Positions 2,947 to 43,851 of a stretch of 57,952 nucleotides of DNA are shown here, piece by piece. The notes below the pieces were generated by a model. That model was not told where the DNA came from. It ran no database searches and saw only the letters and a list, made by a program, of their open reading frames with translations. The DNA comes from a virus. Its lineage: Duplodnaviria; Caudoviricetes. Numbering within the stretch: position 1 is the stretch's first letter; every line of letters begins with the position of its first letter. Location of the stretch: the IMG/VR virus record IMGVR_UViG_3300005099_000473, positions 1 to 57,952 of that record, one strand, 5' to 3'. The translations under genes were made by a program, and so were the position numbers.

Positions 2947-2963
2947 TATGGGAGGTGTTAAGT

Positions 2964-6888: not shown

Positions 6889-7203
6889 ATGATATTGTTA
6901 TATGATGGTAAAGATGTTATCATTTACATACCAAAGGGTAAAAATAAGTTGTATATATGGAAGGAGAAGTCAAATCAAAGAAAAGGTGATACTGTTAAGT
7001 CAGATAAAATAGTATTTTGTATTAAGGGTTCAGATGTAGAGGCAAGAATAAAATTGGAAATTGAGGATGTGTTTTATATTACTGAAGTGTTAAGACATGA
7101 AGCTCTGAGAAGTTATGATGAAATGAGAGAGTTAAGTTTATTGTTAAAGCAAAAATTTTTAGAGAAGGAAAAAGCGAATGATGATGATAGGTCATACTTA
7201 TAG
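6889..7203 (+). CDS. Hypothetical protein
   Basis: ORF 6862-7203; likely start after GAGGTG; a TATA-like AAACAAAAATATTAAA lies upstream at about 6842. Confidence 0.55.
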   Translation: MILLYDGKDVIIYIPKGKNKLYIWKEKSNQRKGDTVKSDKIVFCIKGSDVEARIKLEIEDVFYITEVLRHEALRSYDEMRELSLLLKQKFLEKEKANDDDRSYL

Positions 7204-7217
7204 TGGGGGTGAAGAAT

Positions 7218-15372: not shown

Positions 15373-16956
15373 ATGGAACTTGTTGAAATTAATAAGCAGT
15401 TAGATAAAGAATTTAAGCTCAGTGTGGTTAATGAGGATGAGCGATTGATTGCAGGATGGGCAAGTGTTGAAGTTATTGATAAACAGGGTCAGTATGTTGA
15501 TGTTGATACTTTGGCTAAGGCAATGTTAAAGTTTATGGATAGAGGTGGTTTTGTAAATTACGGTCATGAAAATAAACCAATTGGTAAAGTATTGCAATGG
15601 GAAATTAGAAAGCATCCGAATACGGGGCAGTTAGGAGTTTGGATTATTGCAAAGATAAATAAGGGATATAAGTTAGATGATATTGTTTGGAATTTGATTA
15701 AGTCAGGAAAGTTAAAGGGGTTCAGTATTGCAGGGCTTGGTAATTTAGAAAAAAGAATTATGAAGTCAGATGATGGTCAAGAAAGAGAAGTTGAGGTTTT
15801 GAAAGATGTTGAATTGACTGAGATTAGTATTGTTGATGAACCAGCCAACCCGTATGCACTTATTGAAGAAGTAAGTGTTTTTGCTAAGGGTTCAGTTAAA
15901 GAGATTATGAAAACTGATTATGTTCAGGGTTTGGTTGATGTTTTGTGGGAAAGAATTGATGACATTTTAAGAAAGTATAATATTAGTAAGTCACAAGTTA
16001 TTGCGGATGAAATAGCAGATGAAGTTGAAAAGCATTTTGAAGAGTATGTTAGTTATGTTCAGAAATTCTTTAAGAAAGAAGATGATTTAGAGCATGTTAG
16101 GGATAAGGGTAGGTTGATTGCAACGTTTGATAATAAGGCTGAGGCAGAGAGTTATGCTAAAGAGAAAGGATATGAAGTATTTGAGACAAAGTCTGGTAGA
16201 TGGGCAGTTGTTGAAGTTCAGAAGGCCGAAGGTGCGATTACTACAGAGACTGAGGGTATGATGAATCCGACGTATGGTGATAAAGTTGAAAAACCAAAAG
16301 AAAAGAAAAAAGAAGATGAAGAAGAGGATGTTGAGAAGAAGTATGTAATAAGGGATTTAGAAGGTTTAGAAAGGTTAGAAGTAATGAAATCTGAAGACGG
16401 TTATATTGTTAAAGACTTAAAGACAGGTGAAGAAGTTAAAGTATTTGAAAAGGTATTGACCGAGTTTAAGAAACCAGAAGATTTAAGACCGCCTAAGGAA
16501 TGGTGGGAGAGATGTGTTGAAGAAACAGGCAGGCCAGGGCTTTGTGGTTGGGTGTATTATCATCATTTGAAACCAGAGAAGCCAGCAGGAAAGAAGGATA
16601 AGCCACATACCAGAACGGCAAGACAAAGAAAGAAGAAATGGTTAAAGGAGAAAAAGTCAGGTGAAGTTAAACTCAAAATTGAAGAGTTAAGAAAAACAGT
16701 TAAAGAATTAAAGAAGGCGTTAAATATTGAAGGTACAGTTGAAATAAGAAAGCCATTTGCAGGATTTAAGGATTGGGATGATTGTATAAAGAAAATGAAG
16801 GAACAAGGGTATAGTGAAGAAAGTGCAAAGAGAATTTGTGGTAAGTTAAAAGCAGAGTATGAAAAGGCGCTAATAAGAAAGAGAATGACAAAAACAAAGA
16901 GAATACTAAAGGGAATTGAAATAAAGAAGAAAATAAAAAGACTTTTGAAGAATTAA
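15373..16956 (+). CDS. HK97-type prohead (maturation) protease with a long C-terminal extension
   Basis: IAGWAS.E.IDKQG, YGH...PIGK, KGFSI.G and EISIVDEPANP. The extension has two W..C...CG mini-domains. Confidence 0.88.
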   Translation: MELVEINKQLDKEFKLSVVNEDERLIAGWASVEVIDKQGQYVDVDTLAKAMLKFMDRGGFVNYGHENKPIGKVLQWEIRKHPNTGQLGVWIIAKINKGYKLDDIVWNLIKSGKLKGFSIAGLGNLEKRIMKSDDGQEREVEVLKDVELTEISIVDEPANPYALIEEVSVFAKGSVKEIMKTDYVQGLVDVLWERIDDILRKYNISKSQVIADEIADEVEKHFEEYVSYVQKFFKKEDDLEHVRDKGRLIATFDNKAEAESYAKEKGYEVFETKSGRWAVVEVQKAEGAITTETEGMMNPTYGDKVEKPKEKKKEDEEEDVEKKYVIRDLEGLERLEVMKSEDGYIVKDLKTGEEVKVFEKVLTEFKKPEDLRPPKEWWERCVEETGRPGLCGWVYYHHLKPEKPAGKKDKPHTRTARQRKKKWLKEKKSGEVKLKIEELRKTVKELKKALNIEGTVEIRKPFAGFKDWDDCIKKMKEQGYSEESAKRICGKLKAEYEKALIRKRMTKTKRILKGIEIKKKIKRLLKN

Positions 16957-19116: not shown

Positions 19117-20295
19117 ATGAGTTGGTTTAGATTAACTATGGCTGATATTGAGGCATTCTATAAGGGACTTGGCGGACATCCGTTCTTTACAATAGAAGAC
19201 CTTTATGAGTTTGCTAAAGCTCAAGGTTCAATAACCAGTACAACTACAGGATATAGAAATCCGATTTACGGTGCATTGATTTGGAGACAATTGAATACAG
19301 AAGCTAATGTGTTCGGTGCATTACCAAAGACAAATTGGCCAAGGTCAGGATGGCGTGTAAAGACTGGCTGGTCTGTTAATGCAGCTTCTGACTTATCGAT
19401 AGCTGAGACTGGAACATTGCCAGAGACAGTTTACCCACCAATAACTACAGTTAAGGCAACACCAAAAGTATTGACAATTAACTTTGAGATTTCAGAAGTA
19501 ATGGAAGCATTGGCTGAAGTCAGTAAGGATGATATATGGGGTGCAGTTGACCAAGTTAGGGCTGACATTGGTGTGGAATTCATTAAAATGATTAACAAAC
19601 AATTATTGACTAAAGCTATTGGTAGAAATGATGGTGAATCAAGTTCAAGTGATGGAATTAATTTGACTGCACTTGATAGAATAGTTTCAAGTACTGCTGA
19701 AGTTACTGCATTTTCAGTTACTGCGGGTTCTGAGGACATTTATGATATTGACAGAAGTGCTGCATCATGGTCTCAGCCAGTTGTAAAATATGCAGCTGAT
19801 GGTCAAGAATTAACTGATGAACTTATAAGAAATACGCTTGCAGATGCAAGAGAAAAAGGTGCTAATACGAACATAATAATTACTGGTTATGATACTTATG
19901 CTAAGATACAGGGTCTGTATATGAACTTCATAAGGTATGTGCCACTTGCAGAGACAAAAGTTCAGTTCGGTATTAATGGTATAGAATCAGCAGTAGGTAT
20001 GGACTTAGGTATTAATGTATCTGCATTGTATGGTATTCCAGTTATTCAGGCGGTTGATACGCCCGGCGATGGCGATGGGTATGTAAGTAGAATTTATATG
20101 CTTGATGCAAGTGACCCAGAAGGATATGGTATTCCAAGACTTAGTATGTCTGTACTTAGACCAGTTGAGTACTTTGAGACAAGAGATTATGCATTGCTCC
20201 AGAAGTTTGCAGTTAGAGGTGTGTACAGATTTGCAGGTGAAGTTACAGCCAGATACTTGCCAGGACAAGCCAAGATTAGAGACATACTTGCTTGA
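19117..20295 (+). CDS. Major capsid protein (HK97 fold, archaeal head-tail virus type)
   Basis: 392 aa, after protease and scaffold; NPIYG..IW.QLN.EAN.F..LPK..W..SGWRV motif that I recognise from archaeal tailed-virus capsid proteins; C-terminal GEV......QAKIRDI. Confidence 0.85.
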   Translation: MSWFRLTMADIEAFYKGLGGHPFFTIEDLYEFAKAQGSITSTTTGYRNPIYGALIWRQLNTEANVFGALPKTNWPRSGWRVKTGWSVNAASDLSIAETGTLPETVYPPITTVKATPKVLTINFEISEVMEALAEVSKDDIWGAVDQVRADIGVEFIKMINKQLLTKAIGRNDGESSSSDGINLTALDRIVSSTAEVTAFSVTAGSEDIYDIDRSAASWSQPVVKYAADGQELTDELIRNTLADAREKGANTNIIITGYDTYAKIQGLYMNFIRYVPLAETKVQFGINGIESAVGMDLGINVSALYGIPVIQAVDTPGDGDGYVSRIYMLDASDPEGYGIPRLSMSVLRPVEYFETRDYALLQKFAVRGVYRFAGEVTARYLPGQAKIRDILA

Positions 20296-25847: not shown

Positions 25848-28478
25848 ATGTCATATTCAGTTCAGGGAATAGTTCGTTATGATTTTGATAATGTAGGTCA
25901 GTTAATTTTGAAAGGAATAATAAATGGAAGATTACAAACTGTTCTGTCGCCTGCATATCCTTATGCGTTTGTTGAACGAAAATCGGGGGTTGTAAATGTT
26001 CTGTCAAGTATAGAAGAAGTTATTAATTGGGAAGAAGTAGATTTGAAAGCTTCTGATACTGGAATGGAGGTAATTAAGTTTTTTACGAAAAGCCCGAAGC
26101 ATATACCAGTAGTAAGAGAGAAGTTAAATGATGCTGGATATAAGACGTATGAGTCTGATATTCCGTTTATTAGAAGATTATTGCATGATAAGAAGTTAAT
26201 AATTGATTATGATAGGTCAAATATTGCATATCTGGATATTGAGGTTGATGATAGTAAAAGTTTTCCGTCTGAGTATGGTAAGTATGAGATTGTTTCAGTT
26301 GCAGTTTATGATGGAAATGGAAATGGAGAGTGGTTTTTTATAGACAATTATAATGACGAAGTGGAAATGTTAGGTGATATGGTTGCATACTTAATGGAAA
26401 AGGAAATGACAGTTATTGTTGGTTGGAATGTTCAGTTTGACTATAACCATTTGTTAGAAAGGTTAAGAATGAAAAAGATGTTTTGGGAATTGGAATGGTT
26501 AAGGCATTGTAACGTTATTGATTTAATGCACGAGTATATGTTTGCTGTTAAGGGTTTAAGTAGTTATAGTTTGGAAGAGGTTAGTCGGCATGAGGGTTGG
26601 AAAATCAAACATAAGAGTAAGGCAATTCATGAAATGAGAAAAATGCCAAAAGAACTTGAAGAGTATAATATGTATGATTCTGAATTATTGTATATGATTG
26701 ATAAGAAGTATGGTTTTACAGATGTTAAGTTTGAGATTGCTCGACAGACAAATTTGACGCTTGACATATTGACACAGTCAAGAATAGGTGATGCACTTAT
26801 AATATGGAGACTTAGAGAATTAGGTTATGTTGCGATTGATAAGGTGAAGAAACAAAAGGAAAAGTATAAAGGGGCATTTGTTATTGAACCAGAGCCAGGA
26901 TTGTATAAGTATGTTGGATATTATGATGTTAATAGTCTGTATCCGAATGTAATAATTCATAAGAATATTGACATTGATGGCTTTAATGGTGAAGTAATGC
27001 CATACATTGAAAGGCAGTTGTTAGAGGACAGGGCAAAGTATAAAAAGTTGTATAAAGAGACTAAAAATCCAAAGTATAATGTTATGCAAAATGCAAAGAA
27101 AATATTGGCTAATGGTTTGTATGGTTTGTTTGGTTCGCCCAGTTTCAGATATTATAATAGAGAAAAGGCAGAGGCAATAACGACTGGGGGAAGAGAAGTA
27201 CTAATGAGAATGAAAACATTTATAGAGAATGATTTGGCTTTAAAAGTGTTGTATGGCGATAGTGTAACAAAGGATACAAGAGTTAGATATTATACGTTGT
27301 CAGGAAATGAACGAGTAGAGGCAATTGAAGACTTGTGGAATAGATATAGTAAGTATGCTAAAGTTAGACCAGATGGGAAAGAAGAAATATATCTAAAAAA
27401 TATGCATTTATTGACTTATGCAGTTAGTGATGATTTGAAGGTTGGTTTAAAAGAGATTGTTCGTGTGGTTAGGCATAAAGTAAAGAAAAAAATATATGAG
27501 ATTATTACAGAATCAGGGAAGTCAGTTAAAGTTACAGAAGACCATTCAGTTATGGTTTTGTCAAATGATGGCCAAAGATTAGTAATTAAAAGACCAAAAG
27601 ATTTGAGTATAAATGTAGATATGTTGTTAGTTAAAAGTAATAACGGAAGGGGTAGTAGTTCGTTTGAACGTGTCGTCAAAGTCAAAGAGGTTACAGACTA
27701 CATTGGATATGTTTATGACTTAGAAGTTGAAGAATATCATACGTTTTTTGCAAATGATATTTTAGTGCATAATACTGACTCTATGTTCTGTCATTTAGGT
27801 ATTGCTTTTGATAATGAAATTGAGCCTGATATTGATGCCGTGGTTCAGTTTGCAGAATTCGTTAAGGATGAAATAAATAAGGAGATTGCACCGTTTCAGG
27901 TAAAGCTTGAATGTGTCTTAACAGGAATGCTGTTTTTGAAAGGAGGTGATAGGGGTGGAGCAAAGAAAAGATATGTAGGTTTAAAGACAACTGGTGAATA
28001 TATTGTAAGAGGTTTGGAAGTAAGACGGTCTGATTGGTCTGAGCTTAGTAAAGAAGTTTTATGGAAAGTTATTGATTTGATTTTGAAGGAGGGTAAAACA
28101 AAGAAGGATGTAATGAAATATTTAGGTGAAGTTAAGAGGAAGTTATATAGTGGAGAATATAATGATAAGATTGTTATGGCAAAGTCGTTAAGTAAAAGAA
28201 TTTCAGAATATAGTAATGCTCCGCCTCATGTAAGGGCGTATGTTAAGGCAAAGGAAAAAGGGTATGATTTTGCAGGTCAGAAAGTTACGTTTGTCTGGGT
28301 AAAAGGAGGTGATGTTGAGCCAGTCTATCCAGGAGTTGATTTAAGTAAGATTCCAGTAGATTATGATGCGATTTGGGAAAAACAGATAATGGCGCCAGTA
28401 AAAAGAATCTTGGATAGTATTGGGGCAGGTAGAAATATGAAGTTAGATGTTTTCTTTAAGATGAATAAAAAATCTTAA
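25848..28478 (+). CDS. polB: Family B DNA polymerase with a mini-intein
   Basis: ExoI DIE, ExoII GWN..FD, ExoIII YNMYD; DVNSLYP; KILANGLYG; YGD/TDS split by the intein; KKRY; C-terminal PIP-like NMKLDVFF. Confidence 0.95.
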   Translation: MSYSVQGIVRYDFDNVGQLILKGIINGRLQTVLSPAYPYAFVERKSGVVNVLSSIEEVINWEEVDLKASDTGMEVIKFFTKSPKHIPVVREKLNDAGYKTYESDIPFIRRLLHDKKLIIDYDRSNIAYLDIEVDDSKSFPSEYGKYEIVSVAVYDGNGNGEWFFIDNYNDEVEMLGDMVAYLMEKEMTVIVGWNVQFDYNHLLERLRMKKMFWELEWLRHCNVIDLMHEYMFAVKGLSSYSLEEVSRHEGWKIKHKSKAIHEMRKMPKELEEYNMYDSELLYMIDKKYGFTDVKFEIARQTNLTLDILTQSRIGDALIIWRLRELGYVAIDKVKKQKEKYKGAFVIEPEPGLYKYVGYYDVNSLYPNVIIHKNIDIDGFNGEVMPYIERQLLEDRAKYKKLYKETKNPKYNVMQNAKKILANGLYGLFGSPSFRYYNREKAEAITTGGREVLMRMKTFIENDLALKVLYGDSVTKDTRVRYYTLSGNERVEAIEDLWNRYSKYAKVRPDGKEEIYLKNMHLLTYAVSDDLKVGLKEIVRVVRHKVKKKIYEIITESGKSVKVTEDHSVMVLSNDGQRLVIKRPKDLSINVDMLLVKSNNGRGSSSFERVVKVKEVTDYIGYVYDLEVEEYHTFFANDILVHNTDSMFCHLGIAFDNEIEPDIDAVVQFAEFVKDEINKEIAPFQVKLECVLTGMLFLKGGDRGGAKKRYVGLKTTGEYIVRGLEVRRSDWSELSKEVLWKVIDLILKEGKTKKDVMKYLGEVKRKLYSGEYNDKIVMAKSLSKRISEYSNAPPHVRAYVKAKEKGYDFAGQKVTFVWVKGGDVEPVYPGVDLSKIPVDYDAIWEKQIMAPVKRILDSIGAGRNMKLDVFFKMNKKS
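27261..27773 (+). mobile_element. 171-aa mini-intein in PolB motif C (YGD|TDS)
   Basis: Starts with Ser (SVTKDT); block B VTEDHS; block F VYDLEV; ends HN followed by Thr; no LAGLIDADG motif. Confidence 0.92.
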
Positions 28479-32096: not shown

Positions 32097-32798
32097 ATGA
32101 ATGAAAGGATAAAAGATAAAATTCCAGTAGTTGAAATATTTGAAAGCTTTCAAGGTGAAGGAAGGTTTATGGGACAAAGGGCTTTGTTTGTTAGGTTTGC
32201 AGGATGTAATTTGGTCGGTAAATGTAAATATTGTGATACTGATTTCAGAGTAAGAAAGTTAATGACAGTAAATGAAATTACAGTTGAAGTATTGAAGTAT
32301 TTGGCAAGCAATGGTAAGTTAGTAGTATTTACTGGCGGAGAGCCAATGATATACCAAGATGTGATGATAGAAATAATGAGGAAGTTAGAAGGGACTGGTA
32401 AGGGTCTGTTTCAGATTGAGACGAATGGAACAATAAAGCCCATGCCAGATTTTTTATTGAAGATTGATAAAATTGTGGTAAGTCCTAAAAGAGGATATGA
32501 AAAGAAGGCATATAAGAATTTTGTAAATAATGAATTGGTTGACTGGAAATATGTAGTTGGAGATGTTCCAGAGGACAGTGCGTTTTGGTCGTATGATAGA
32601 ATAAGACCTGAAGTTAGATGGTTAGTTGAAGTATATGGAGTATCACAGAATAATATTTGGCTAATGCCGTATGGTGCAACTAAAGAGGAACTTGAAAAGA
32701 ATGCAGTTAAAGTTTGGCAGTTAGCTAAGGAATTGGGAGTGAATGTTTCCGACCGTCTTCATGTTCGGGTATTTGGGAAAAGTATGATGGGAGTGTGA
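32097..32798 (+). CDS. queE: 7-carboxy-7-deazaguanine synthase (radical SAM)
   Basis: EIFESFQGEG...FVRFAGCNL...CKYCDT, TGGEP, IETNGT, VSPK, RLH. Confidence 0.9.
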   Translation: MNERIKDKIPVVEIFESFQGEGRFMGQRALFVRFAGCNLVGKCKYCDTDFRVRKLMTVNEITVEVLKYLASNGKLVVFTGGEPMIYQDVMIEIMRKLEGTGKGLFQIETNGTIKPMPDFLLKIDKIVVSPKRGYEKKAYKNFVNNELVDWKYVVGDVPEDSAFWSYDRIRPEVRWLVEVYGVSQNNIWLMPYGATKEELEKNAVKVWQLAKELGVNVSDRLHVRVFGKSMMGV

Positions 32799-32802
32799 GC
32801 AA

Positions 32803-34234
32803 GTGGACGTTGTCTTAATGAAGTTTATAGTGTTGTATATATTGGTAGTAATAGTTTTGTATGTGATGTTATCAAGTATTATGGATTTGGAAGAAAGTGA
32901 ATTAGAAAAGACGTTAAGAAAGCTTTCGGATAGGATGTGGAAAAGTTAAGGGGTGGTATGTATGGAAAAGTTTTGGAAATTGATTATTGTTGATAAAGGT
33001 AGAACGCAAGTGTATGAAGGTAAGGAATGGAATATTGTAGTTGCAAGTGTAAGGAGAATAAAGAAAGGTGTATTAAGAGGTTTTATTTTTGATGCATATG
33101 AAAATTATTCAAGTATGTCAGATGATGAATTAATTAAGAAATTTGGGGATGAGATAGTATTGAGGGTGCATGAATGGAAGGAGGATTGATAAAAATGTTT
33201 GGGTTTGGAAAAAGAAAATGGAAGTCATCTGTAGAGAAATGGTATAAGGATATGGTTAGAAAGTATAATATTACGGAAGAGGAAGAGTTAGAATATTTAA
33301 ATGAGTTGGCAGATGAATTGAACAAGACACCATTGTCTGCGTCAGCTTTGTTAGTGTTTTTGGTATTGTTAGGGTTAGTGCTATTGTCAGCAGGAATTGG
33401 AATATTAATACTATTGTTTGCTTTTTGGTGGGCATCAAAAATGGATAAGGATAGGGCAAATGAGGCTGAGAAGAAGTTTTTAATGTGGAGAATGTCAAGG
33501 AGGGGTTGAAAATGATATTGGATGTTTTGAAGTTGAAGGATGAAGTTAAAGAATTAAAAGATGAGATTAAGAAAATGAAAGAGGAAATGGTTTATTTAAA
33601 AGGTGTTACGAAAGAACTTTTGGAAAGGTATAACAGATTATTAGATGAGCATGCAAGACACATTAGTGCATATTATGCGTCTGCAAGTGATATGTTTGGT
33701 ATAGTACTTCTTGATACAAAAAATAAAATTGTTTTTATTGATAAAGACAAGATGTTCAAGGATTGGAAAGTATATTATTTGTCAAAGAAACCTGAGGATG
33801 AAGAAATAAATGAATGATATTAAATAGTTTAAGGAGTGATGTAGTATGGAGGTTGATGAGAAGATTATTAGGTATGTAGCTGATTTAATTAGAGACGTTG
33901 AAGGAGAAATTTATGAGAAGCAATTAGCAGATAAATTGGATGAATATGATAAACTTGTTGAGGTATTAATGATATTAGATGGTTTAGGGGGTGATGAAGA
34001 ATGAAAGAGTTAAAGATAGGTGATAAAGTATATGTAGAGGCTGAATATATTGGTTTGTCTCCAGAAGGTTTGAAAAAGTTTTATGTAATAACTGGGACAG
34101 GAATTAAAGTTGAAGTAAGATGTAAAGAAGGATACTATTTCAGTAAGGAAGAAGTTTGTGAGGAATTAGTTAAGAAATTAAAGCCAAAGAAGAAAGTAAG
34201 GAGAAGAAAGAAAAAGGAAGGTGAAGAAAAATGA
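32803..34234 (+). other. Run of six small hypothetical genes (32803-32949 membrane peptide, 32953-33189, 33195-33509 membrane protein, 33512-33817, 33846-34004, 34001-34234)
   Basis: Tightly packed + strand ORFs, most with an RBS. 33846-34004 has GEIYEKQLADKL, similar to the wHTH-like GEVIWSDEIADKL of 52624-52950. Confidence 0.5.
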
Positions 34235-34692
34235 GGGTTTGGAGAGTAAAAAGAAAAATATATTGGTCTGATAGTTTTGACAGTGCTCATTTTTTAATTT
34301 TGCCGTATAGTAGTAAATGCTTGAACATTCATGGGCATGAGTATAAAGTAGAGGTGGAGATAGAAGGACAGTTAGATGATAATGGAATGATTTTTGACTT
34401 TAATCATTTAAAGACAATAGTTAAGAAGTTAGACCATGCTGTTATTGTACCAAAGGATGCAATAAAGTTTGAACAGGGGTTGGTTGAGGTTGAAACGTTA
34501 AATGGTAGTAAAATGATTTTGAATAAAGGGCAGTATATAGTTATTGAGGGTAATGCAACAGCTGAAAATATTGCAGAATATATTGCTGGTCAGATAGTTA
34601 AGAATGCAAATGATAATATTGAGAAAGTTAAAGTTAAGGTATGGGAAGATTCAAGAAGTTATGCAGAAATTGAGTTAAATAACAACCATTAG
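34231..34692 (+). CDS. queD: 6-carboxy-5,6,7,8-tetrahydropterin synthase
   Basis: FDSAH, C.NIHGH.Y.VEV, DF..LK...LDH, TAENIA, V.VWE. Confidence 0.9.
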   Translation: MRVWRVKRKIYWSDSFDSAHFLILPYSSKCLNIHGHEYKVEVEIEGQLDDNGMIFDFNHLKTIVKKLDHAVIVPKDAIKFEQGLVEVETLNGSKMILNKGQYIVIEGNATAENIAEYIAGQIVKNANDNIEKVKVKVWEDSRSYAEIELNNNH

Positions 34693-34781
34693 AAAATTCG
34701 AGGTTATTATTCATAAAACAACCATTAAGATTTTCAACAGTTGTTTTACAAAAGGCTGTATGATTACTTGAGGTGATAATA

Positions 34782-35375
34782 ATGGTGAGTTGGAGTAAAA
34801 TTGAGGATAAGATTCAAGAACTGATTGAAATATTGCATGATGAATTGGGTTGGTTTAATGAGGAAGAATTAGAGAATACTGCAAGTAGAATAGTAAAGTT
34901 TTATGAGGAATGGCATGAGAATAGTCAGTATGATAGGTTTACGTTATTTGATAATGGTGGTGATAGAGGAACAGTTTATAAGTATGACCAGTTAGTAATA
35001 TTAAAGAATATAACGTTGCATAGTATGTGCAGTCATCATATGTTGCCGTTTTTTGGAGTAGCTCATATTGTATATTTGCCAGGTGAAAAGGTGATTGGAG
35101 TAAGTAAATTGGCAAGGGTAGTTAGAAAGTTTGCGAGTAAACCTCAGATTCAGGAACAGTTAACAGAAGAAATAGCGGACTATTTGTTTAAAGTTTTAAG
35201 ACCAAGATTTTTAATGGTTGTTATTGAGGCAAGGCATACTTGTATGATAATTAGGGGAGTTAGAGAACATGAAAGTACAATGGTTACAAGTGCGATAAGG
35301 TATGATAAACAAAGTTTTGAAAAAGGTATTGGTAGTTTAAAAGATGAGGCTTTGAGGTTGATTTATGGGAGGTGA
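34782..35375 (+). CDS. folE: GTP cyclohydrolase I
   Basis: SMCSHHMLPFFG, GVSKLARVV, QIQEQLT, H.CM..RGV. Confidence 0.93.
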   Translation: MVSWSKIEDKIQELIEILHDELGWFNEEELENTASRIVKFYEEWHENSQYDRFTLFDNGGDRGTVYKYDQLVILKNITLHSMCSHHMLPFFGVAHIVYLPGEKVIGVSKLARVVRKFASKPQIQEQLTEEIADYLFKVLRPRFLMVVIEARHTCMIIRGVREHESTMVTSAIRYDKQSFEKGIGSLKDEALRLIYGR

Positions 35376-37024: not shown

Positions 37025-38104
37025 TTGATGCTATTGAGTGATTTGGTTTTGTTTTATTCAGGGTTTGACAGTACTGACAGGTTAAAGAGATTGATAGAGG
37101 TAATGGAGAATGGGTTTAATGTTTCAGGAGTTTTGGTGACGTTTATTGGTCTTGAAGGTAGTGTGATGAAATATTTAAAGTTATTGAAGAAAGAGTATGA
37201 TGTTAAGTTAATGTTGGATAGTGGTGCGTTTAGTTTTAATAAAGCGTTATGGTGGATGAATGGAATAGTGAAGTTTGAGCCTTCTGAGAAAGTTTTACAA
37301 ATTATGAAGTATAAGAGATATGACTGGTATTTTAGAAAATATCTAAGATTTTTAAAGAGAAATATTGATTTGTTTGATGTTTATGCTGAGTTAGATTTAC
37401 AGTTAGTTGTTGGAACAGAGAAAGTTAATGAGTGGAGAGAGATGTTCATTAAAGAAGGTCTGGAGCCTGTTTTGGTTTGGCATGGGGAAAATGAAAAAGG
37501 AGTAATTGAAATGTTGCAGTATGGGGATAAGTTTGGATTTCCTTGGAAACAGTTAGATAAAAGACCAGAGGATATAATGCAGTTAGTTAGGTTTGTTAAG
37601 AAGAATGGTGCAAAATGGATACATTGGTTTGGTATGACTCGTTGGAATGTTTTGAGACAGTTATCATTGGAGAAAATATTGAATAGTGCTGATAGTACTG
37701 CTTGGGCATCTGCTCAGAGATATGGTGTTGTATATGTTATAGATGGGGAAAGTCAAGTAAGAAGTCTTCAGATTTCGTTTAATAGTAAGAGAGGTACAGA
37801 TGATAAGAAGAAGGTTGTGGCAAGTCAGTATAGAAAGTTTTTAGAACAAAATAAAGAAAAGATAATTGAGCTTGGGTTAGATTATGAGAAAATATTTGGT
37901 TTGAAAGACTGGAGAGAAGTGTCTTTTATGAATTTATTGGTATTTCAATGGGGTTTAGAAGAATTAAATAAGGAGCTTAAATCTGGCAAAAGGTTTAAAT
38001 ATTTGGATTTAGAAAAACATATGAGGAATGGGGATGGAGTATTTGATAATATAAGATTAAAGCCAAAAAGAAAAGATATTGATTTGGGGAGGTGGTTGAG
38101 TTGA
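37025..38104 (+). CDS. DpdA/TGT-like transglycosylase 1 (7-deazaguanine insertion into DNA)
   Basis: LMLDSGAFS, AELD, PVLVWHG, IHWFG and SADSTAW are TGT-barrel motifs; located in the que cluster. Confidence 0.75.
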   Translation: MMLLSDLVLFYSGFDSTDRLKRLIEVMENGFNVSGVLVTFIGLEGSVMKYLKLLKKEYDVKLMLDSGAFSFNKALWWMNGIVKFEPSEKVLQIMKYKRYDWYFRKYLRFLKRNIDLFDVYAELDLQLVVGTEKVNEWREMFIKEGLEPVLVWHGENEKGVIEMLQYGDKFGFPWKQLDKRPEDIMQLVRFVKKNGAKWIHWFGMTRWNVLRQLSLEKILNSADSTAWASAQRYGVVYVIDGESQVRSLQISFNSKRGTDDKKKVVASQYRKFLEQNKEKIIELGLDYEKIFGLKDWREVSFMNLLVFQWGLEELNKELKSGKRFKYLDLEKHMRNGDGVFDNIRLKPKRKDIDLGRWLS

Positions 38105-38547
38105 AAGTTACATATTTGGATTATGGGAAAGTGTATGAAATGCTTCTGCAATTGGAAGGTATTGATAAATATGATAGAATTGTTGGTATTGGAAGAGCAG
38201 GAATTATTCTGGCTGGAATGCTTGCAACGATGCACGATAAGAGATTGTCCTATGTTGTTTTGGGAAAGGAGAATGGGGTATATCCAGTTCCTGATAAGTC
38301 AGAGAAAATATTGTTAGTAGATGATGTGCTTGCAACTGGTAAGACAATGAAAATTGTTGAGGAAATGTTCAAGGGATATGATTATGACATTTATGTTATT
38401 GTTGATGGTATTGATAGGGCAAAATATAGACCGGAGAAGTATATGTGTTCGATAGTAGCAGAGGAAAGTAATTGGATATTGTTTCCTTGGGATTTGATAG
38501 ATTTTGTTATAGGAGAAAGAAAAAGTTATTCAAGGTGGAGAGTATGA
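38092..38547 (+). CDS. Type I phosphoribosyltransferase
   Basis: GIGRAG, LLVDDVLATGKTM (PRPP-binding loop), W.LFPW. Confidence 0.85.
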   Translation: MVELKVTYLDYGKVYEMLLQLEGIDKYDRIVGIGRAGIILAGMLATMHDKRLSYVVLGKENGVYPVPDKSEKILLVDDVLATGKTMKIVEEMFKGYDYDIYVIVDGIDRAKYRPEKYMCSIVAEESNWILFPWDLIDFVIGERKSYSRWRV

Positions 38548-38852
38548 GGGAAAGAAAGATTTATGCTTTTGATTTAGATGGTGTGCTCTGTGAAGAAGGT
38601 GATTGGAGACCAGGAGGAATGATAAAGAGAAAACCAATTAAAGAAAATATTGAGAAAGTAAATAAGTTGTTTGATATGGGTAACATTATTGTAATATTTA
38701 CTGCCCGTCTTGAGGAAGACCGTCCAGTAACTGAAGCTTGGTTAAAGTTGAATGGTGTAAAGTATGATTATCTAATAATGGGAAAGCCAAGATTTGATGT
38801 GTATGTGGATGAAAGAAGGAAAGTGATAGGAATTGAGGATTTGGAGGTGTGA
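38544..38852 (+). CDS. Small HAD-family phosphatase
   Basis: FDLDG, FTAR, MGKP..D.YVDE. Confidence 0.82.
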   Translation: MRERKIYAFDLDGVLCEEGDWRPGGMIKRKPIKENIEKVNKLFDMGNIIVIFTARLEEDRPVTEAWLKLNGVKYDYLIMGKPRFDVYVDERRKVIGIEDLEV

Positions 38853-38855
38853 TGT

Positions 38856-39656
38856 ATGAGTATTTGGGAACATACTGTTCCGTATAAAAGGTATAAGCTT
38901 GCCATAATGTGGTCAGGAGGTATGGATACGACAATTGCTTGGTTTTATGCTATGAAGAATGAATATAAGCCCGAGGATGTAGTTATGATACATTTGGCGA
39001 TTGGTGAGCCATATGAGGAGAAGCAACAGAAAGCGATTAAGATGTTAAGTCCGTATATTGAGAGTGATATTTTAATGTTTGATTTTGACCTTTTGAGAAA
39101 AGAAATTGGGAATGTTCCGACGCCAGATAAACAGATTGTTCCAGGCAGAAATTTATTGATTGCATATCTTGGAGCATTTTTTGCGGATAGGGTCTGGTTA
39201 GGAGCTTTGGATGGTGAAATGCATAGATATATGCCTGATAAGAATATGGTGTTTTTCCAATTGACAAGTGGAATATTGTCGTATATTATGGATAAAGATA
39301 TTGTGGTTGAAACTCCGTTTGCTACAATGAGTAAGTCGGAAGTTTTGAAATGGATGGTTGATATGTATGGAAAAGAATATACTGAGGAAGTTATTTCTAA
39401 GACTGTTACTTGTTATGACCCTGATGAATGGGCATGTGGAAAGTGTTCGACTTGTTTCAAGAGATGGATAGCGTATGTTAATGCAGGTTTGGATTGGAGT
39501 AAGTATTGGAAAGTTAATCCAGCTGAGAGTGAGGTAGCTAAGAGTTTAGTGAGGAAGTATAAAGAGGCTGAAAGAAAAGGAGAATATAGTCATTACAGTA
39601 GAAAAAGAATAAGAGAGACGTTTGAAGCATTAAGAAAAATGGGGGTTGAGATATGA
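38856..39656 (+). CDS. queC: 7-cyano-7-deazaguanine (preQ0) synthase
   Basis: SGGMDT, VPGRN, TP.....K, TCY....CGKCSTC.KR. Confidence 0.88.
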   Translation: MSIWEHTVPYKRYKLAIMWSGGMDTTIAWFYAMKNEYKPEDVVMIHLAIGEPYEEKQQKAIKMLSPYIESDILMFDFDLLRKEIGNVPTPDKQIVPGRNLLIAYLGAFFADRVWLGALDGEMHRYMPDKNMVFFQLTSGILSYIMDKDIVVETPFATMSKSEVLKWMVDMYGKEYTEEVISKTVTCYDPDEWACGKCSTCFKRWIAYVNAGLDWSKYWKVNPAESEVAKSLVRKYKEAERKGEYSHYSRKRIRETFEALRKMGVEI

Positions 39657-40846
39657 AGGTGTTTTTGGCAGGTGCTGAGTCTTTTATTGATTTGGTAAAG
39701 AAAGTTCAGCCAAAGTATGTTCTTATGTCTTTTTATTATTTGAAAGAAAAGAATATTGATATCAGTGATTTGTATGATTTGGGAGTTAGTATTTTTATTG
39801 ATAGTGGTGGTTTTACGTTCAGGACAAAACATAAAGTAGATTCTGTTCCAATGACATATATTGATGAGTATGCTCAGTGGTTGCTTGAGAATGAAAAGTA
39901 TTTATTTGCGTATGCTAATGTTGATGTTTTAGATGTAAATGAAACTAAAAGAAATCAAGAATATTTAGAGGATGAATATGGGTTAAGGCCTGTCCCTGTC
40001 TGGCATTATGGAGAAAGTGATGATATTATGAGAGAGTATGTTGAAGTTTATGATTATGTTGCTTTTGGTGGTTTTGCCGGTGGAAATGATAAAGTTTTTG
40101 TAAGAGATAGGGTTTTGAATTCGTTAAGAAAAGCTAAGAGGTTTAATGAGGATGTTAAAGTTCATGTGTTTGGATATGCGGGTGATTTGAGAAGTATAGC
40201 TGGTTTGGCATATAGTTGTGATGTTACTTCTTGGATTGCAGGGAGATATGGTAAAGTTAGTTTGTTCAGAAACAATATTGTTGAAATGGTACATTGGAAA
40301 GAGGGTCAGATAATTTTAAAGAGTAAAGCTGAAGAGTATGGTTTTGATTTTGAAAAGATTAAGAAAGGAGATTATCATGTTCTGAATGAACTGTCTATGT
40401 GGGAGTGGAAGAAAGCTCAAGAGTTTTATGAGGATTATGAGGTGAATATTGGTATGGCGCAGTCAGATATAGATGATTTAATTGAGCAAATTAAGATAAA
40501 ATATGGTGTAAGTCTTGAAATAGAAGAAATAATGAGGTTTTTAATAGATGAAAAGTTTAAACGATATGTATTTGCAAGGAAGTTAGAAGAGCAACAGGGA
40601 ATTATTGATAGGTCAGTAACGCAGTTAGAGGATAGTCTGGCTCAGTTAATTGAGAAGTATATGAAGATAAAGTATCCAGAAAGGTTTAGAACTGTTCGTA
40701 TTAGAGAAGAGAAAGTAAATGAAGAAAAAGAAGCATACTTATGGGAAGAAAAGCTTCAGAGAATTGAAAAGATATTTGCTCGGTCTGTTTCTGAGGAAGA
40801 GGAAGAGGATGAGGAAAGTAAAGTTCCAGTTGTGGTTGAGGAGTAA
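39653..40846 (+). CDS. DpdA/TGT-like transglycosylase 2 fused to a C-terminal helical domain (terminase small subunit candidate)
   Basis: IFIDSGGFT, ANVD, PVWHYG, KVHVFG, SCDVTSW; in-frame internal RBS GAGGTGA (40439-40445) with ATG at 40454; immediately upstream of TerL. Confidence 0.7.
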   Translation: MKVFLAGAESFIDLVKKVQPKYVLMSFYYLKEKNIDISDLYDLGVSIFIDSGGFTFRTKHKVDSVPMTYIDEYAQWLLENEKYLFAYANVDVLDVNETKRNQEYLEDEYGLRPVPVWHYGESDDIMREYVEVYDYVAFGGFAGGNDKVFVRDRVLNSLRKAKRFNEDVKVHVFGYAGDLRSIAGLAYSCDVTSWIAGRYGKVSLFRNNIVEMVHWKEGQIILKSKAEEYGFDFEKIKKGDYHVLNELSMWEWKKAQEFYEDYEVNIGMAQSDIDDLIEQIKIKYGVSLEIEEIMRFLIDEKFKRYVFARKLEEQQGIIDRSVTQLEDSLAQLIEKYMKIKYPERFRTVRIREEKVNEEKEAYLWEEKLQRIEKIFARSVSEEEEEDEESKVPVVVEE

Positions 40847-40857
40847 GGTGGTGAAAT

Positions 40858-42243
40858 GTGAATATTGAATATGTTAAAGAAAAGTTAAGAGAATTGAGTA
40901 AGAAGTATCCGATTGGTTTTGCTGAGTGGATTAGTGGATTTAAATTGTTTCCGTATCAGAGAAAGTTTTTGGCTGACCAGAGTAAGAGGTTGATATTTGT
41001 TGCAGGGCGTCAGATTGGAAAAAGTACGATTGTTGCATTAAAGGCTCTGTGGAGAGCTTGGACACATGAAAATCAAGTGATTTTAGTAATTGCTCCGACA
41101 TTTAGACAATCAAAAATATTGTTCGATAAAATAAGGAGTTTTTTGATGAATGAGGATTTGATAATGAATGATGTGGTAAGATTGACAATGCATGATATTG
41201 TTTTTAAGAATGGAAGTAGTATTCATTGTTTGCCTGCGGTTCAGGAGAATATTCGTGGTTATACTGCTGATATGATAATTGTTGATGAGGCCGCGTATGT
41301 TCCAGATGAGGTTTTTACAGCAATTGAACCGTCTCTGGCAGTTAAAGATGGGACATTGATATTATTGGGCAGTCCATATACGCCTAGTGGATATTTCTAT
41401 AGAGCATGGACAAGTTCAGACTGGAGTAAGTATCATGTTAGTTCGTATAAGAATCCATTGATTAGAAAAGAATGGATTGAAAAGTATAGGGCAAGTCATA
41501 CAGAAATTGAATTCAGACGTGAGATTTTAGGTGAGTTTGTTGAAGAGACTGAAGAAGGATTGTTCAGTTTGGATGCAGTTCGTAGGGCAATGAAGTTAAA
41601 GAGAACTGGCAGTCCTGTTCCGGGGTATCGTTATTTTATGGGAGTTGATTTGGCAAGATTCGGTAAAGATATGACTGCGGTTGTTCTTATTGGTGTTAAA
41701 GAAGGTGATGAGGAAGCTCCGTTTGAGATGCATGCTTTGTATTATAGACAGAAAAGACCGTTAAATGAGACAATTGGTTGGTTATTGGATTTGAATATGA
41801 AATGGAAACCAGAAAAGATTTTTGTTGATGCGAATGGACTTGGAGCCGGTGTTTATGATGTATTGGTTGAGAAATTGGGAAGTATGGTTAATGATGTAAA
41901 AGTAAGTGGCAGGGAAAGAGTAGAAATGTATATGACAACAAAGAGGTTGCTTGAAGAAGGCAAATTATTGTTGATAAATGATAGTAAGTTATTGGAGCAT
42001 TTCTTGAATTACGAAGTTAAGTATACAAGTAGTGGTAAGATTAGAGTAATAAAGAAGCCAGAAGGTCATGATGATATTTCAGATGCGACAGTTTATGCAG
42101 TTTATGGTGCAGTTATGACGTTAGGTTATGGTCAGAGAGTATATGCAGCCAGTTTTGATTTAGATGAATTAACTGATAAGATTACAGAGATTGAAACGAA
42201 AGCTTATGGTGATGTTGGTTACGAAAGATATTGGGGGTGGTGA
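40858..42243 (+). CDS. terL: Terminase large subunit
   Basis: PYQ, AGRQIGKS (Walker A), IIVDEAA (Walker B), GVDLARFGKD and HDDISDA nuclease motifs. Confidence 0.93.
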   Translation: MNIEYVKEKLRELSKKYPIGFAEWISGFKLFPYQRKFLADQSKRLIFVAGRQIGKSTIVALKALWRAWTHENQVILVIAPTFRQSKILFDKIRSFLMNEDLIMNDVVRLTMHDIVFKNGSSIHCLPAVQENIRGYTADMIIVDEAAYVPDEVFTAIEPSLAVKDGTLILLGSPYTPSGYFYRAWTSSDWSKYHVSSYKNPLIRKEWIEKYRASHTEIEFRREILGEFVEETEEGLFSLDAVRRAMKLKRTGSPVPGYRYFMGVDLARFGKDMTAVVLIGVKEGDEEAPFEMHALYYRQKRPLNETIGWLLDLNMKWKPEKIFVDANGLGAGVYDVLVEKLGSMVNDVKVSGRERVEMYMTTKRLLEEGKLLLINDSKLLEHFLNYEVKYTSSGKIRVIKKPEGHDDISDATVYAVYGAVMTLGYGQRVYAASFDLDELTDKITEIETKAYGDVGYERYWGW

Positions 42244-42244
42244 A

Positions 42245-43447
42245 ATGGCAGTTTTAGTTAAAGTAAAAAGATATTATAATGATGATTATGGTAGAGAACG
42301 TGATGATGAGTTTGAAGTAAGTATTACAGTATTTGGGTTAGATGAAATTATAGTTAATGACATTTTGAATGACATGGACTTTGAGTATATTGTGGGTTAT
42401 GACGAATGGAGAATTACTGGCGATGATGGTATGGAGTATGTGGTTGAAGTTGAGGAAATAGATGAAAGTGATACAGTTTTGGTTGGAGATGAAAAGGCAG
42501 TCTTAATGATGTTAGAAGGGTTAATTAAGAAGTTAATTTCTGAAGAGTGGGATGAGTAAGGTGATAGTTATGTCATATGAATTGATTTTAAAGATTTTTA
42601 CGTATGTTGGTTTTGTAGTAGTTAGTGCAGTACTGTTATTGTTAGCAAGTTTTATGTGTTGGTTGGCATTTGAAATGTTCAAAACAGTATTTGAAAGGAC
42701 AAAGATATATAAGACAGTGATTGAATTTGCCAAAGAGAATGAGGAATATATTTATGAATGGAAAGAAAGAAAAAGAAAGGAGCGTGATAATCATGGAGAA
42801 TAGATTTGAAGGTTGTAAAGTTTTGTGGGGAAAGAGATATAGGGGAACAGTTTCAAGAGTTATTAGATATGCAGAAGCAGTTATTGAAACAAAAGATGGA
42901 AAACTTTATTATGTCGATGCGAGTCTTGACTTTGGCGAATGGGAAGTTGATGTTTCAGTGAATGTTCATTTGGTTGAGAAGTTTGATAAAGAAACGAAGC
43001 AAGTTAAGAGAAAAAGAGGTTTTGTCGCAATCAATTCGAAAGAGTGGGAGTATCTTGAAAAATTGTTATTAAGTGAGTGTGATAGTAATGCCCAAGATAG
43101 CTGAAGAAAAAAGAAAAATAAAGACGTTTTATTGGAGTAGTACAGAGCAGGGTTTGTTAGATGAAGTCAGGGATTTATTGATAAAAATAGACAAGGAAAA
43201 GTATGGCTGGAAATATGTAAAGGCTGAACTGGACAAGAAAAATAAAGGAAAATACTCTGACAGTATGATAATGAGGTTTATAATAGAAAAGGCTGGCGGA
43301 TTGACGTTAAAGATGTTAAGTGAGGAATTGGAAAGTTTAAGAAAAGGCAAAAAGAAGAAAAAGCCGGAGAAAACCCCAAATCCGATAGAACGGATTGTAA
43401 AGGACGTTAGCGACAGAAGTGACTTATATTGGTTGCAGGCGGAATAA
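42245..43447 (+). other. Four hypothetical genes (42245-42559, 42552-42803 with a TM helix, 42793-43104, 43088-43447)
   Basis: Overlapping + strand ORFs; no clear family. Confidence 0.5.
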
Positions 43448-43464: not shown

Positions 43465-43851
43465 ATGAACATGAATCTGGAAAAGGAAAGAAAAAGAAAG
43501 TTAAGATTGAGATTAAGACCATTTGACATAACTGATGATAGAAGAAGTAGAATTGGGAATAAAATGTGTATATTCTGTGGAACAACTGACCTACTGGATA
43601 CAGCCAGAGGATTTTATTTATGTGATGACCATTTTAGGAGACTGCCCTCTTATATTGGAGTAAAGGCAAAACCGATAATTCCATTAGGCTCTGAGAAATG
43701 CATTGTCTGTGGCAAGTTATTATGGACTGACTTCATAACTAAATACAAGTATGGCTGGTATATTATTGAAGCTCCGGTATGTATAAGATGTATGTGGCGT
43801 ATATTGGGAAGACAAAGAAAGCCATTAAAGGCCAATGACGAAAGGATATGA
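43465..43851 (+). CDS. Zinc-finger protein
   Basis: CIFC...CDDH and CIVC...CIRC. Confidence 0.6.
   Translation: MNMNLEKERKRKLRLRLRPFDITDDRRSRIGNKMCIFCGTTDLLDTARGFYLCDDHFRRLPSYIGVKAKPIIPLGSEKCIVCGKLLWTDFITKYKYGWYIIEAPVCIRCMWRILGRQRKPLKANDERI

Follow-up and report, generated by a model that had tools for sequence, protein, structure and literature searches.

A DpdA-type DNA transglycosylase fused to a candidate small-terminase-like module in front of terL in an uncultivated tailed virus

Introduction

What is an enzyme of DNA base modification doing directly in front of a large terminase gene? In passages of PMC10516641, DpdA is described as a post-replicative modifier of phage DNA with subfamilies DpdA1-4, and the levels of modification by DpdA systems range from 0.1% to 100% of guanines. 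The locus that raises our question lies in the viral record IMGVR_UViG_3300005099_000473 (Duplodnaviria; Caudoviricetes), all 57,952 bp of which we analyzed and refer to as the window. Here, a single open reading frame (ORF) joins a DpdA-like barrel of the tRNA-guanine transglycosylase (TGT) fold (module 1) to a helical C-terminal domain (CTD, or module 2), and the CTD occupies the slot of a small terminase subunit (TerS), just upstream of the large terminase (TerL) gene terL. An earlier note on this DNA, made from the letters alone, had proposed that the gene makes both a free TerS-like subunit and a DpdA-TerS fusion, coupling base modification to packaging.

Based on homologs, gene neighborhoods, and structure predictions, we propose that the gene encodes a DpdA fused to a TerS-like module, and we put a TerS role for this module in this virus at slightly under an even chance. 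Its TerS function, oligomerization, binding to TerL, and any coupling of modification to packaging are inferences within this proposal.

Results

One uninterrupted frame joins two modules

The gene and its parts are listed below; AF2 stands for AlphaFold2 and pLDDT for its predicted local distance difference test score.

39653..40846, + strand: whole ORF, 397 aa, DpdA barrel plus putative TerS-like helical module (same frame in the independent contig L019)
39653..40438, + strand: DpdA/TGT-fold barrel, aa 1-262 (PHROG 887; AF2; Foldseek)
40439..40445, + strand: in-frame Shine-Dalgarno-like GAGGTGA, doubling as Glu-Val codons (sequence; GAGGTG at the matching boundary in L007/L020)
40454..40456, + strand: candidate internal start ATG (Met268), 8 nt after GAGGTGA (sequence)
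40454..40846, + strand: C-terminal module, 130 aa plus stop (profile search, alignments, AF2 pLDDT 82)
40520..40672, + strand: core helical hairpin, CTD residues 23-48 and 53-73, with the R..E..GG..D region (pLDDT ~97; R304, E312, G316, D319 invariant)
40721..40813, + strand: long C-terminal helix, CTD residues 90-120 (AF2 CTD model)
40790..40843, + strand: acidic tail SEEEEEDEESKVPVVVEE, its end predicted disordered (sequence, AF2 model)
40847..40857, + strand: 11-nt spacer with the terL ribosome-binding site GGTGGTGA (sequence)
40858..42243, + strand: terL, large terminase, 461 aa, GTG start (Pfam Terminase_6N 1.4e-16, Terminase_6C 1.9e-6; PHROG 2 1.3e-55)

The 130-aa product that would be read from ATG 40454 begins MAQSDIDDLIEQ, and its acidic run corresponds to CTD residues 113-121. 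The ORF stops at TAA 40844-40846, followed by 11 nt and the terL GTG at 40858. The core hairpin is also the region that aligns in hhalign with two actinophage proteins, Kvothe gp9 and TIN4 Orf1, to which we return below. The layout given in the earlier note, including the ORF, GAGGTGA and its spacing, the in-frame ATG, the acid-tailed 130-aa product, and the distance to terL, is accurate throughout.

A fused gene in metagenomic data may be an artifact of assembly or sequencing, with two genes read as one because the stop codon or frameshift that separates them was masked. We consider this very improbable here. The identical 397-aa frame is present in the independent metagenome contig L019 (99% identical), and a fused homolog of 391 aa occurs in contigs L007 and L020. 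Contigs from other runs across the stretch, which are short and of low depth and speak to presence only, contain zero insertions or deletions. One of these, a 223-nt piece bridging the module boundary (40274-40496), differs by substitutions only; a T>C change at 40447 is synonymous, and the Shine-Dalgarno (SD) motif and ATG are intact. In addition, fused homologs number in the hundreds. The missed stop codon before 40454 that the earlier note had allowed for is therefore contradicted by the intact frame in L019 and by the absence of indels in contigs of other runs. Separately, we observed that contigs X2 and X3, from two runs, match the window downstream of 40537 and diverge upstream of it, which suggests that the N-terminal part of the CTD has diverged in some strain or relative, or else that a mosaic joint runs through the module.

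The N-terminal module is a DpdA

Sequence and predicted structure agree that the N-terminal part is a DpdA of the TGT superfamily, as the earlier note had recognized, and its predicted activity is the insertion of a 7-deazaguanine into DNA. Residues 1-269 match PHROG 887 at 6.2e-39 and PHROG 7068 at 2.5e-11 (in Pfam, the barrel has no match), and tblastn recovered the annotated DpdA/TGT genes of 185 phage records. The AF2 barrel is confident over aa 1-260 (pLDDT ~85-95), and in a Foldseek search with this model the top 50 entries were all tRNA-guanine transglycosylases (E 1e-6 to 1e-5, probability 1.0). The family-invariant residues of 6- and 7-sequence alignments are kept, namely D50 (in DSGGF), D91, H171, S188, D190 (in CDVTSW), and W194; D50, D91, and D190 may correspond to the catalytic Asp residues of TGT enzymes.

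The C-terminal module is a widespread domain

To delimit the family of module 2, a profile of four CTDs was searched against 1.84 billion representatives. Of the 695 proteins recovered at E<=1e-3, 191 also passed E<=1e-10 and 3 passed E<=1e-30. Among the best 150 of the 695, 106 are at least 300 aa long and 44 are shorter. Other than P0002, the long hits in this set number 105, and at least 89 of them match the barrel hidden Markov model (HMM); the remaining 16 include P0024, a divergent BRock-type DpdA, the proteins P0035, P0137, and P0143 discussed below, and six proteins that carry an HNH nuclease. Distant DpdAs of 500-550 aa (P0005, P0007, and those of the Streptomyces phages BRock and GiJojo) contain the C-terminal domain and match PHROG 887 end to end. 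The short hits include some fragments and many whole proteins (P0139, P0013, P0066, P0101, P0117), and 32 of 35 short members of the family align with the C-terminal portion of PHROG 887. For instance, the free-standing P0139 (133 aa) is 42% identical to the window CTD and has a similar acidic tail, as does the free-standing P0013.

The family consensus reads CxxCx5C(P)x7-8C, helix, E..GG..D, helix, short strand, G.LS.LFG. Most members carry the Cys cluster, including the closest relative of the window protein (P0002, 391 aa), which has the same C-terminal part; the cluster is missing from the window CTD and from P0139. R304, E312, G316, and D319 are invariant in an alignment of the window with related DpdA C-terminal parts. 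An AF2 model of the CTD built on 35 sequences reached a pLDDT of 82 and consists of a helix (CTD residues 3-17), the hairpin 23-48/53-73 (~97), and the long helix 90-120, with the acidic end loose. It supersedes a first full-length model built on 7 sequences, in which the CTD had a pLDDT of only 40-64. From its homologs, we conclude that module 2 is an autonomous, separable, and widespread domain; the separable C-terminal domain of the earlier note, and the fused and split homologs by which it was to be checked, both occur across relatives.

Other searches with these proteins recovered less. No short forms of the window CTD turned up in a word-based search, the phage collection had no tblastn match for the window CTD, P0013, or P0101, and the window CTD had no usable match in the ESM Atlas. 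There, P0031 matched viral hypothetical clusters, one of them with Terminase_4 on 19% of its members at 0.86, which is below the 0.9 line and serves as a lead only. Locus searches for P0135 and P0123 in viral contigs, and for A5 in genome contigs, returned nothing.

Two side observations concern the partners of the domain. By eye, the N-termini of P0035 (encoded in contig L021), P0137, and P0143, which are fused to the same CTD, resemble the second, divergent DpdA-like gene of the window (DpdA-like 1); if this likeness holds, two different types of TGT paralog are joined to one partner domain. In a Pfam scan of 25 family members of odd length, HNH was found in 7, inteins in 5, and LAGLIDADG in 4, with the inteins and LAGLIDADG domains in members of 860-1000 aa.

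Position of the module in the clade of the window

The clade of the window comprises four distinct members, whose TerL proteins are 38-44% identical, and in 4/4 the module lies just upstream of terL. Their arrangements are as follows.

Window and L019: module fused to DpdA; 11-nt spacer to terL
L007 and L020 (one member): same Que cassette, module fused; stop overlaps terL by 4 nt
L021 and L022 (one member): CTD fused to an N-terminal part resembling DpdA-like 1 by eye, with no match to the barrel HMM; a 61-aa ORF, then terL
L008, L009, L023, and L025 (one member): free-standing gene of 128-133 aa; stop overlaps the terL start

The fused and split forms upstream of terL that the earlier note had suggested looking for are therefore both present within one clade. 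In the free-standing member, an ERCC4-like nuclease and a methyltransferase-like ORF (by-eye assignments) lie before the module gene; no Que/DpdA cassette is found at the module-terL locus of its four contigs, and no DpdA in the 18.7-kb viral record of the L008-type virus. NCBI names the free-standing protein P0101 JDFR1000234_13 [uncultured archaeal virus], and the words transglycosylase, queuosine, and archaeosine are absent from the main text of the paper on this virus (PMC5340873).

We made several further observations on these loci. L023 and L025 lie on one 96,147-bp contig, in which a 10-kb region is present twice, 55,906 bp apart, and therefore the contig is a concatemer of a ~55.9-kb genome. 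The terL of L007/L020 encodes 782 aa (L007 8243-10591; L020 5243-7591) versus 461 aa in the window; its best TerL HMM stretch covers only aa 485-769, which suggests that it holds a large insertion, possibly an intein. After terL, all clade members have, by eye, a ribbon-helix-helix (RHH)-like ORF and a CxxC...CxxC zinc-finger ORF; the coordinates given for these conserved neighbors are 43465-43851 in the window, 11627-11995 in L007, and 9840-10214 in L008.

Position of the module in other viruses

We examined the DNA context of about 17 lineages of the 695 homologs. In Bacteroides phage BS162P1, the module is a separate gene adjoining a barrel-only dpdA. In L010-L013 it is likewise separate and lies 0.6-1.3 kb downstream of a barrel-only dpdA (in L010 as a matching stretch with no intact frame), and it is fused to DpdA in L014-L016 and in five Streptomyces BRock-like phages. 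In L037, L038=L040, and L039, an HNH::CTD gene immediately follows a barrel-only dpdA. The HNH forms the N-terminus of the CTD gene, right at the dpdA junction (L037 5046-7047; L038/L040 5031-7047; L039 5040-7026), as would be expected had a mobile HNH element broken a fused gene in two. The stretches L010 6001-6582 and L035 (G006:C1:10500-15500) have tblastn/HMM matches yet no long frame under genetic code 11, which may reflect stop-codon reassignment in these phages. A 285-290-aa ORF upstream of terL in G004/G007 has no PHROG or Pfam match.

A different context was found in actinophages. Using P0122 as a tblastn query, we matched Orf1 of Tsukamurella phages TIN2-4 and gene 9 of Gordonia Kvothe-like phages. 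In hhalign, the domain profile aligns with Kvothe gp9 (aa 287-392 of 465; probability 95.9%, E 5e-9) and with Orf1 of TIN4 (aa 305-407 of 484; probability 95.8%, E 8e-9), and the alignments cover the Cys cluster as well as the hairpin. Kvothe gp9 and TIN Orf1 are annotated as terminase small subunits and overlap terL, which is followed by portal. The N-terminus of Kvothe gp9 (~290 residues) has no match to the DpdA profile. These actinophage proteins correspond to PHROG 6902, 'terminase small subunit', which is matched by 5 of 35 short family members (best 2.8e-8, positions 290-396 of 469).

Does module 2 act in packaging?

As a TerS gene would, the module gene lies directly upstream of terL, ending 11 nt before it in the window and overlapping it in L007/L020 and L008/L023. 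No TerS family was found by HMM search among the ten ORFs neighboring the gene, in PHROGs for 64 window ORFs of 60-260 aa (14 families matched), or among the Pfam matches listed for small window ORFs (25 of 52 families). The statement of the earlier note that there is no other obvious TerS thus holds at the level of HMMs for the 10 neighbors and 64 small ORFs, and it is weak evidence because TerS proteins are often undetectable by homology. The predicted size and shape of module 2 (130 aa, with its hairpin at pLDDT 97) would fit a TerS core, and a hairpin alone is not diagnostic. We also folded the CTD together with TerL, as the earlier note had suggested. The pair scored 0.36 (runs 0.36, 0.36, 0.30) versus 0.00 for the best of 3 controls, with contact agreement of at least 54% and partner pLDDT of at least 59 in runs that used our own alignments. 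The mark used for such folds is reached by 58/80 solved complexes and 2/110 mismatches, and, at <=0.60, by only 7/80 and both mismatches. A TerL-CTD contact is therefore predicted with weak support.

Several observations weigh against a TerS role. Outside the clade, the module tracks DpdA and not terL: terL lies 14, 14, 15, and 53 kb from it in 4/4 longer viral records checked, and the terminase gene of Streptomyces phage GiJojo ~75 kb away. The window CTD alone matches no TerS family in Pfam or PHROGs, and against the PDB neither Foldseek (best E 1.6) nor a sequence profile matched a solved TerS or anything else of note; the full-length protein had only one spurious match to PDB sequences (E 0.028). 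In BFVD, the CTD matched family members and otherwise weakly, the best such match being an uncultured archaeal virus protein at E 1e-3, and its match to the 'Terminase small subunit' of Gordonia phage Jumbo has a probability of 0.94 but an E of 0.7. The CTD profile is unlike the annotated TerS of Halogranum tailed virus 1 (HGTV-1), comparisons with HGTV-1 gp3 and gp4 and with gene 33 of Thermus phage Riverbug were all negative, and so was that of the Riverbug TerS with window ORF 42191-42559. The CTD model (helix, hairpin, long helix) has no recognizable N-terminal helix-turn-helix, and the Cys cluster, a potential site of DNA or metal binding, is missing from the window copy. At the score reached by the TerL fold, predictions are wrong more often than they are right, except where the pairing was already likely. 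Lastly, the actinophage 'terminase small subunit' labels are probably annotation by position rather than by a test of function.

These points bear on the alternative that module 2 serves only as a partner of DpdA, a DNA-binding or oligomerization domain that in most members holds an Fe-S or Zn cluster and that helps the transglycosylase act on double-stranded DNA. In this view, it has no packaging role, its adjacency to terL is an accident of the placement of the deazaguanine cassette, and the true TerS is an unrecognized small ORF. In its favor, the large majority of long hits are DpdA fusions, the split forms remain beside dpdA, nearly all short members match the end of a DpdA family (PHROG 887), terL is distant in BRock-like phages and in G004-G007, and a TerS can readily escape homology searches. 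Moreover, deazaguanine cassettes of mycobacteriophages adjoin terminase genes for other reasons (PMC10484667). However, the free copy in L008/L023 overlaps terL with no DpdA or Que gene there or in the 18.7-kb viral record, and the main text of PMC5340873 mentions no transglycosylase or queuosine genes. The same domain ends Gordonia and Tsukamurella TerS-slot proteins whose N-termini are not DpdA, and within the clade two TGT paralog types are fused to the module while its adjacency to terL stays constant. We regard a pure DpdA partner as a serious contender that we would nonetheless expect to fail, and the belief left over from this reading and from a TerS role goes to other roles of module 2. 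The TerS-like module of the earlier note is thus partly supported, by its position beside terL in the clade and by homology to actinophage TerS-slot proteins, while the ties of the wider family to DpdA and the lack of a solved-TerS fold match speak against it. The further ideas of that note, in which the fusion serves self-recognition, quality control, or reading of the modified base, are pure speculation.

Is module 2 also translated alone?

We scanned for matches to the SD core at 4-11 nt before in-frame ATG, GTG, or TTG codons. Among the 912 internal in-frame start codons of the 102 ORFs in the window, 14 have an SD match of >=6 nt and 3 of >=7 nt, including the site at 40439-40456; such motifs are therefore rare inside genes but not unique. 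By comparison, 29/102 annotated starts have an SD match of >=6 nt. What is notable about the site is its exact place at the domain boundary and its conservation in L007/L020, where GAGGTG-N6-ATG stands at the same boundary as GAGGTGA-N8-ATG in the window. No other start candidate in the C-terminal half of the window gene has an SD match; in L007/L020, the boundary ATG is the only ATG/GTG candidate in that half, with one weak TTG besides. The strong in-frame ribosome-binding site and ATG described in the earlier note are therefore real, and they are kept in one other fusion of this type.

Whether the site is used is a closer call. It may be that the full-length fusion is the sole product, with GAGGTGA-ATG left over from the start of a once separate gene or present by chance as codons for Glu-Val-...-Met; we lean marginally toward this explanation. 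The genome is purine-rich and has 14 comparable internal sites, the SD motif doubles as Glu-Val coding sequence, the fused clade member L021 and the L014 and L015 fusions are without such a site, and plain fusions make up most of the family. Against this, the site has kept its position and sequence in two genes whose fused proteins are only 47-52% identical and whose linkers differ in length and content, it is among the 3 strongest of 912, and free-standing homologs of equal length and tail exist (P0139, P0013). Separate translation is plausible in this lineage and is not a family trait, and use of the internal start in the cell is, in our judgment, quite possible if somewhat doubtful.

Genomic setting

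Our gene call gives 102 ORFs, every one on the + strand. Tailed-virus genes include portal, a protease-like gene, a major head protein, and a family-B-type polymerase, and the genes for preQ0 supply lie closer to dpdA.

7203-9044: portal
15373-16956: protease-like gene
19117-20295: major head protein
25848-28478: family-B-type polymerase
32097-32798, + strand: QueE (PDB sequence match, 7-carboxy-7-deazaguanine synthase, 7.9e-11)
34231-34692, + strand: QueD-like (PDB sequence match, PTPS/CPH4 synthase, 7.7e-10)
34773-35375, + strand: FolE (PDB sequence match, GTP cyclohydrolase I, 1.6e-33)
37025..38104, + strand: second divergent DpdA-like gene, paralog 1 (DpdA-like 1), without CTD (PHROG 887 8.9e-20)
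38856..39656, + strand: QueC-like gene, overlapping the dpdA start by 4 nt (Pfam QueC 1.4e-20)

By these matches, the preQ0 pathway is complete near dpdA (FolE, QueD, QueE, QueC). Because terL is ~32 kb from portal, the classic terS-terL-portal block is absent here. Among cultured viruses, the archaeal HGTV-1 has the nearest TerL (31.8% identity, E 6e-61), and several small window ORFs match haloarchaeal small zinc-finger protein families in Pfam.

Some features of the surroundings are recorded as side observations. Between DpdA-like 1 and QueC lie a phosphoribosyltransferase (38092-38547, Pfam 1.4e-8) and a small HAD-like ORF (38472-38852) with weak Pfam matches only, and both are kept in L007/L020. 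The + strand is very cytosine-poor (C 7.7%, G 26.7%), with a GC skew of ~0.36-0.68 in every 2-kb segment. The C content is 6.7-6.9% in L007/L020, which have the same Que/DpdA cassette, and 13-15% in L008/L023 and L021; this correlation of low C with the cassette is based on 2 lineages versus 2. Two ORFs upstream of portal (2955-3830 and 4312-5631) have CxxxCxxC motifs, of radical S-adenosylmethionine type by eye.

Discussion

The evidence presents two facts that have to be reconciled: across the family the domain keeps company with DpdA, and yet it occurs by itself in front of terL in a sister virus and at the end of actinophage TerS-slot proteins that have no DpdA barrel. Because of this, the simplest account is a TerS-type DNA-binding or oligomerizing module to which DpdA is often attached or with which it is often assembled, and from sequence comparison we hold this account to be close to, but short of, an even call. 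In the virus studied here, module 1 (aa 1-~262) would be a DpdA that replaces guanine in double-stranded DNA with a 7-deazaguanine base, which would be supplied by the neighboring FolE-QueD-QueE-QueC genes. Module 2 (aa ~268-397), with its hairpin, long helix, and acidic tail, would be a TerS-like subunit of the packaging enzyme, and the fusion would therefore tether the modifying enzyme to the subunit by which viral DNA is marked for packaging. If the internal ribosome-binding site and ATG also yield free module 2, as they may, mixed oligomers of free and DpdA-bearing subunits could therefore form. A broader proposal is that the C-terminal domain of many phage DpdAs is a small-terminase-type DNA-binding ring module, that modification is thereby targeted to DNA selected for packaging, and that two starts give two subunits in the clade; taken as a whole, we think this unlikely.

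An unannotated domain in several hundred viral proteins now has a name and a boundary. As a conserved partner, it may help to explain how DpdA finds viral DNA and why modification levels vary. A domain that some viruses join to DpdA, others encode apart from it, and others have by itself in the TerS slot is also a testable handle on the link between modification and packaging, and it is present in culturable phages of Gordonia, Tsukamurella, Streptomyces, Bacillus cereus (BCD7), and Bacteroides. Were the ring-module proposal true, 7-deazaguanine would be inserted by a TerS-tethered or TerS-assembled enzyme across many unrelated phages and archaeal viruses. If the domain were only a DNA-binding aid for DpdA, it would still be new for the enzyme family and be of specialist interest only.

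DpdA, TerS, and the long forms of DpdA in databases are already known. In a limited library of literature on DpdA, terminase, TerS, and DpdA3/DpdA4, we found no description of a DpdA-TerS fusion, and passages of PMC10516641 make no mention of a C-terminal domain of DpdA or of a terminase link. Nor, within the parts of that literature covered, did we find the C-terminal domain recognized as a family of its own, a homology between it and TerS-slot proteins, a distribution over fused, split, and lone forms, or the conserved internal start.

Among known systems, the window gene resembles phage DpdA (PHROG 887) in its TGT-fold barrel, its invariant residues, and its preQ0 synthesis cluster, and the long members of PHROG 887 (~500 aa; BRock gp36, GiJojo gp181) already have the C-terminal domain. 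It differs from these long DpdAs in having lost the Cys cluster, in its internal SD and ATG, and in abutting terL. The passages of PMC10484667 describe rosebushviruses with the deazaguanine cassette directly upstream of terminase. Bipper and PenguinLover67 similarly have a ParB-like/DNA-binding gene 1, dpdA and que genes, and then terminase, whereas the DpdA there is barrel-only, with no module 2 in matches that covered query aa 8-249 only. Like the ring-forming solved TerS proteins (of P22, Sf6, SF6, T4-like 44RR, PaP3, and others), module 2 is small, has a predicted central helical hairpin and a C-terminal tail, and is encoded before terL; it differs in that no PDB entry matches it in fold or sequence and in having no evident N-terminal helix-turn-helix. 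The proteins of Gordonia phages (gene 9 of Kvothe, Katyusha, and Demosthenes) and of Tsukamurella phages TIN2-4 (Orf1) have a homologous Cys-cluster and hairpin domain near the C-terminus and overlap terL. Unlike the window gene product, they are 465-484 aa long with an N-terminal part unlike DpdA, and portal comes right after terL, compared with 32 kb from terL in the window. The free homolog of JdFR1000234 (P0101, protein _13) differs in being a separate gene of 128-133 aa that keeps the Cys cluster and has no Que/DpdA cassette beside it. It has in common with the window a module 34% identical to that of the window, its place before a TerL that is 44% identical, and the RHH and zinc-finger genes downstream.

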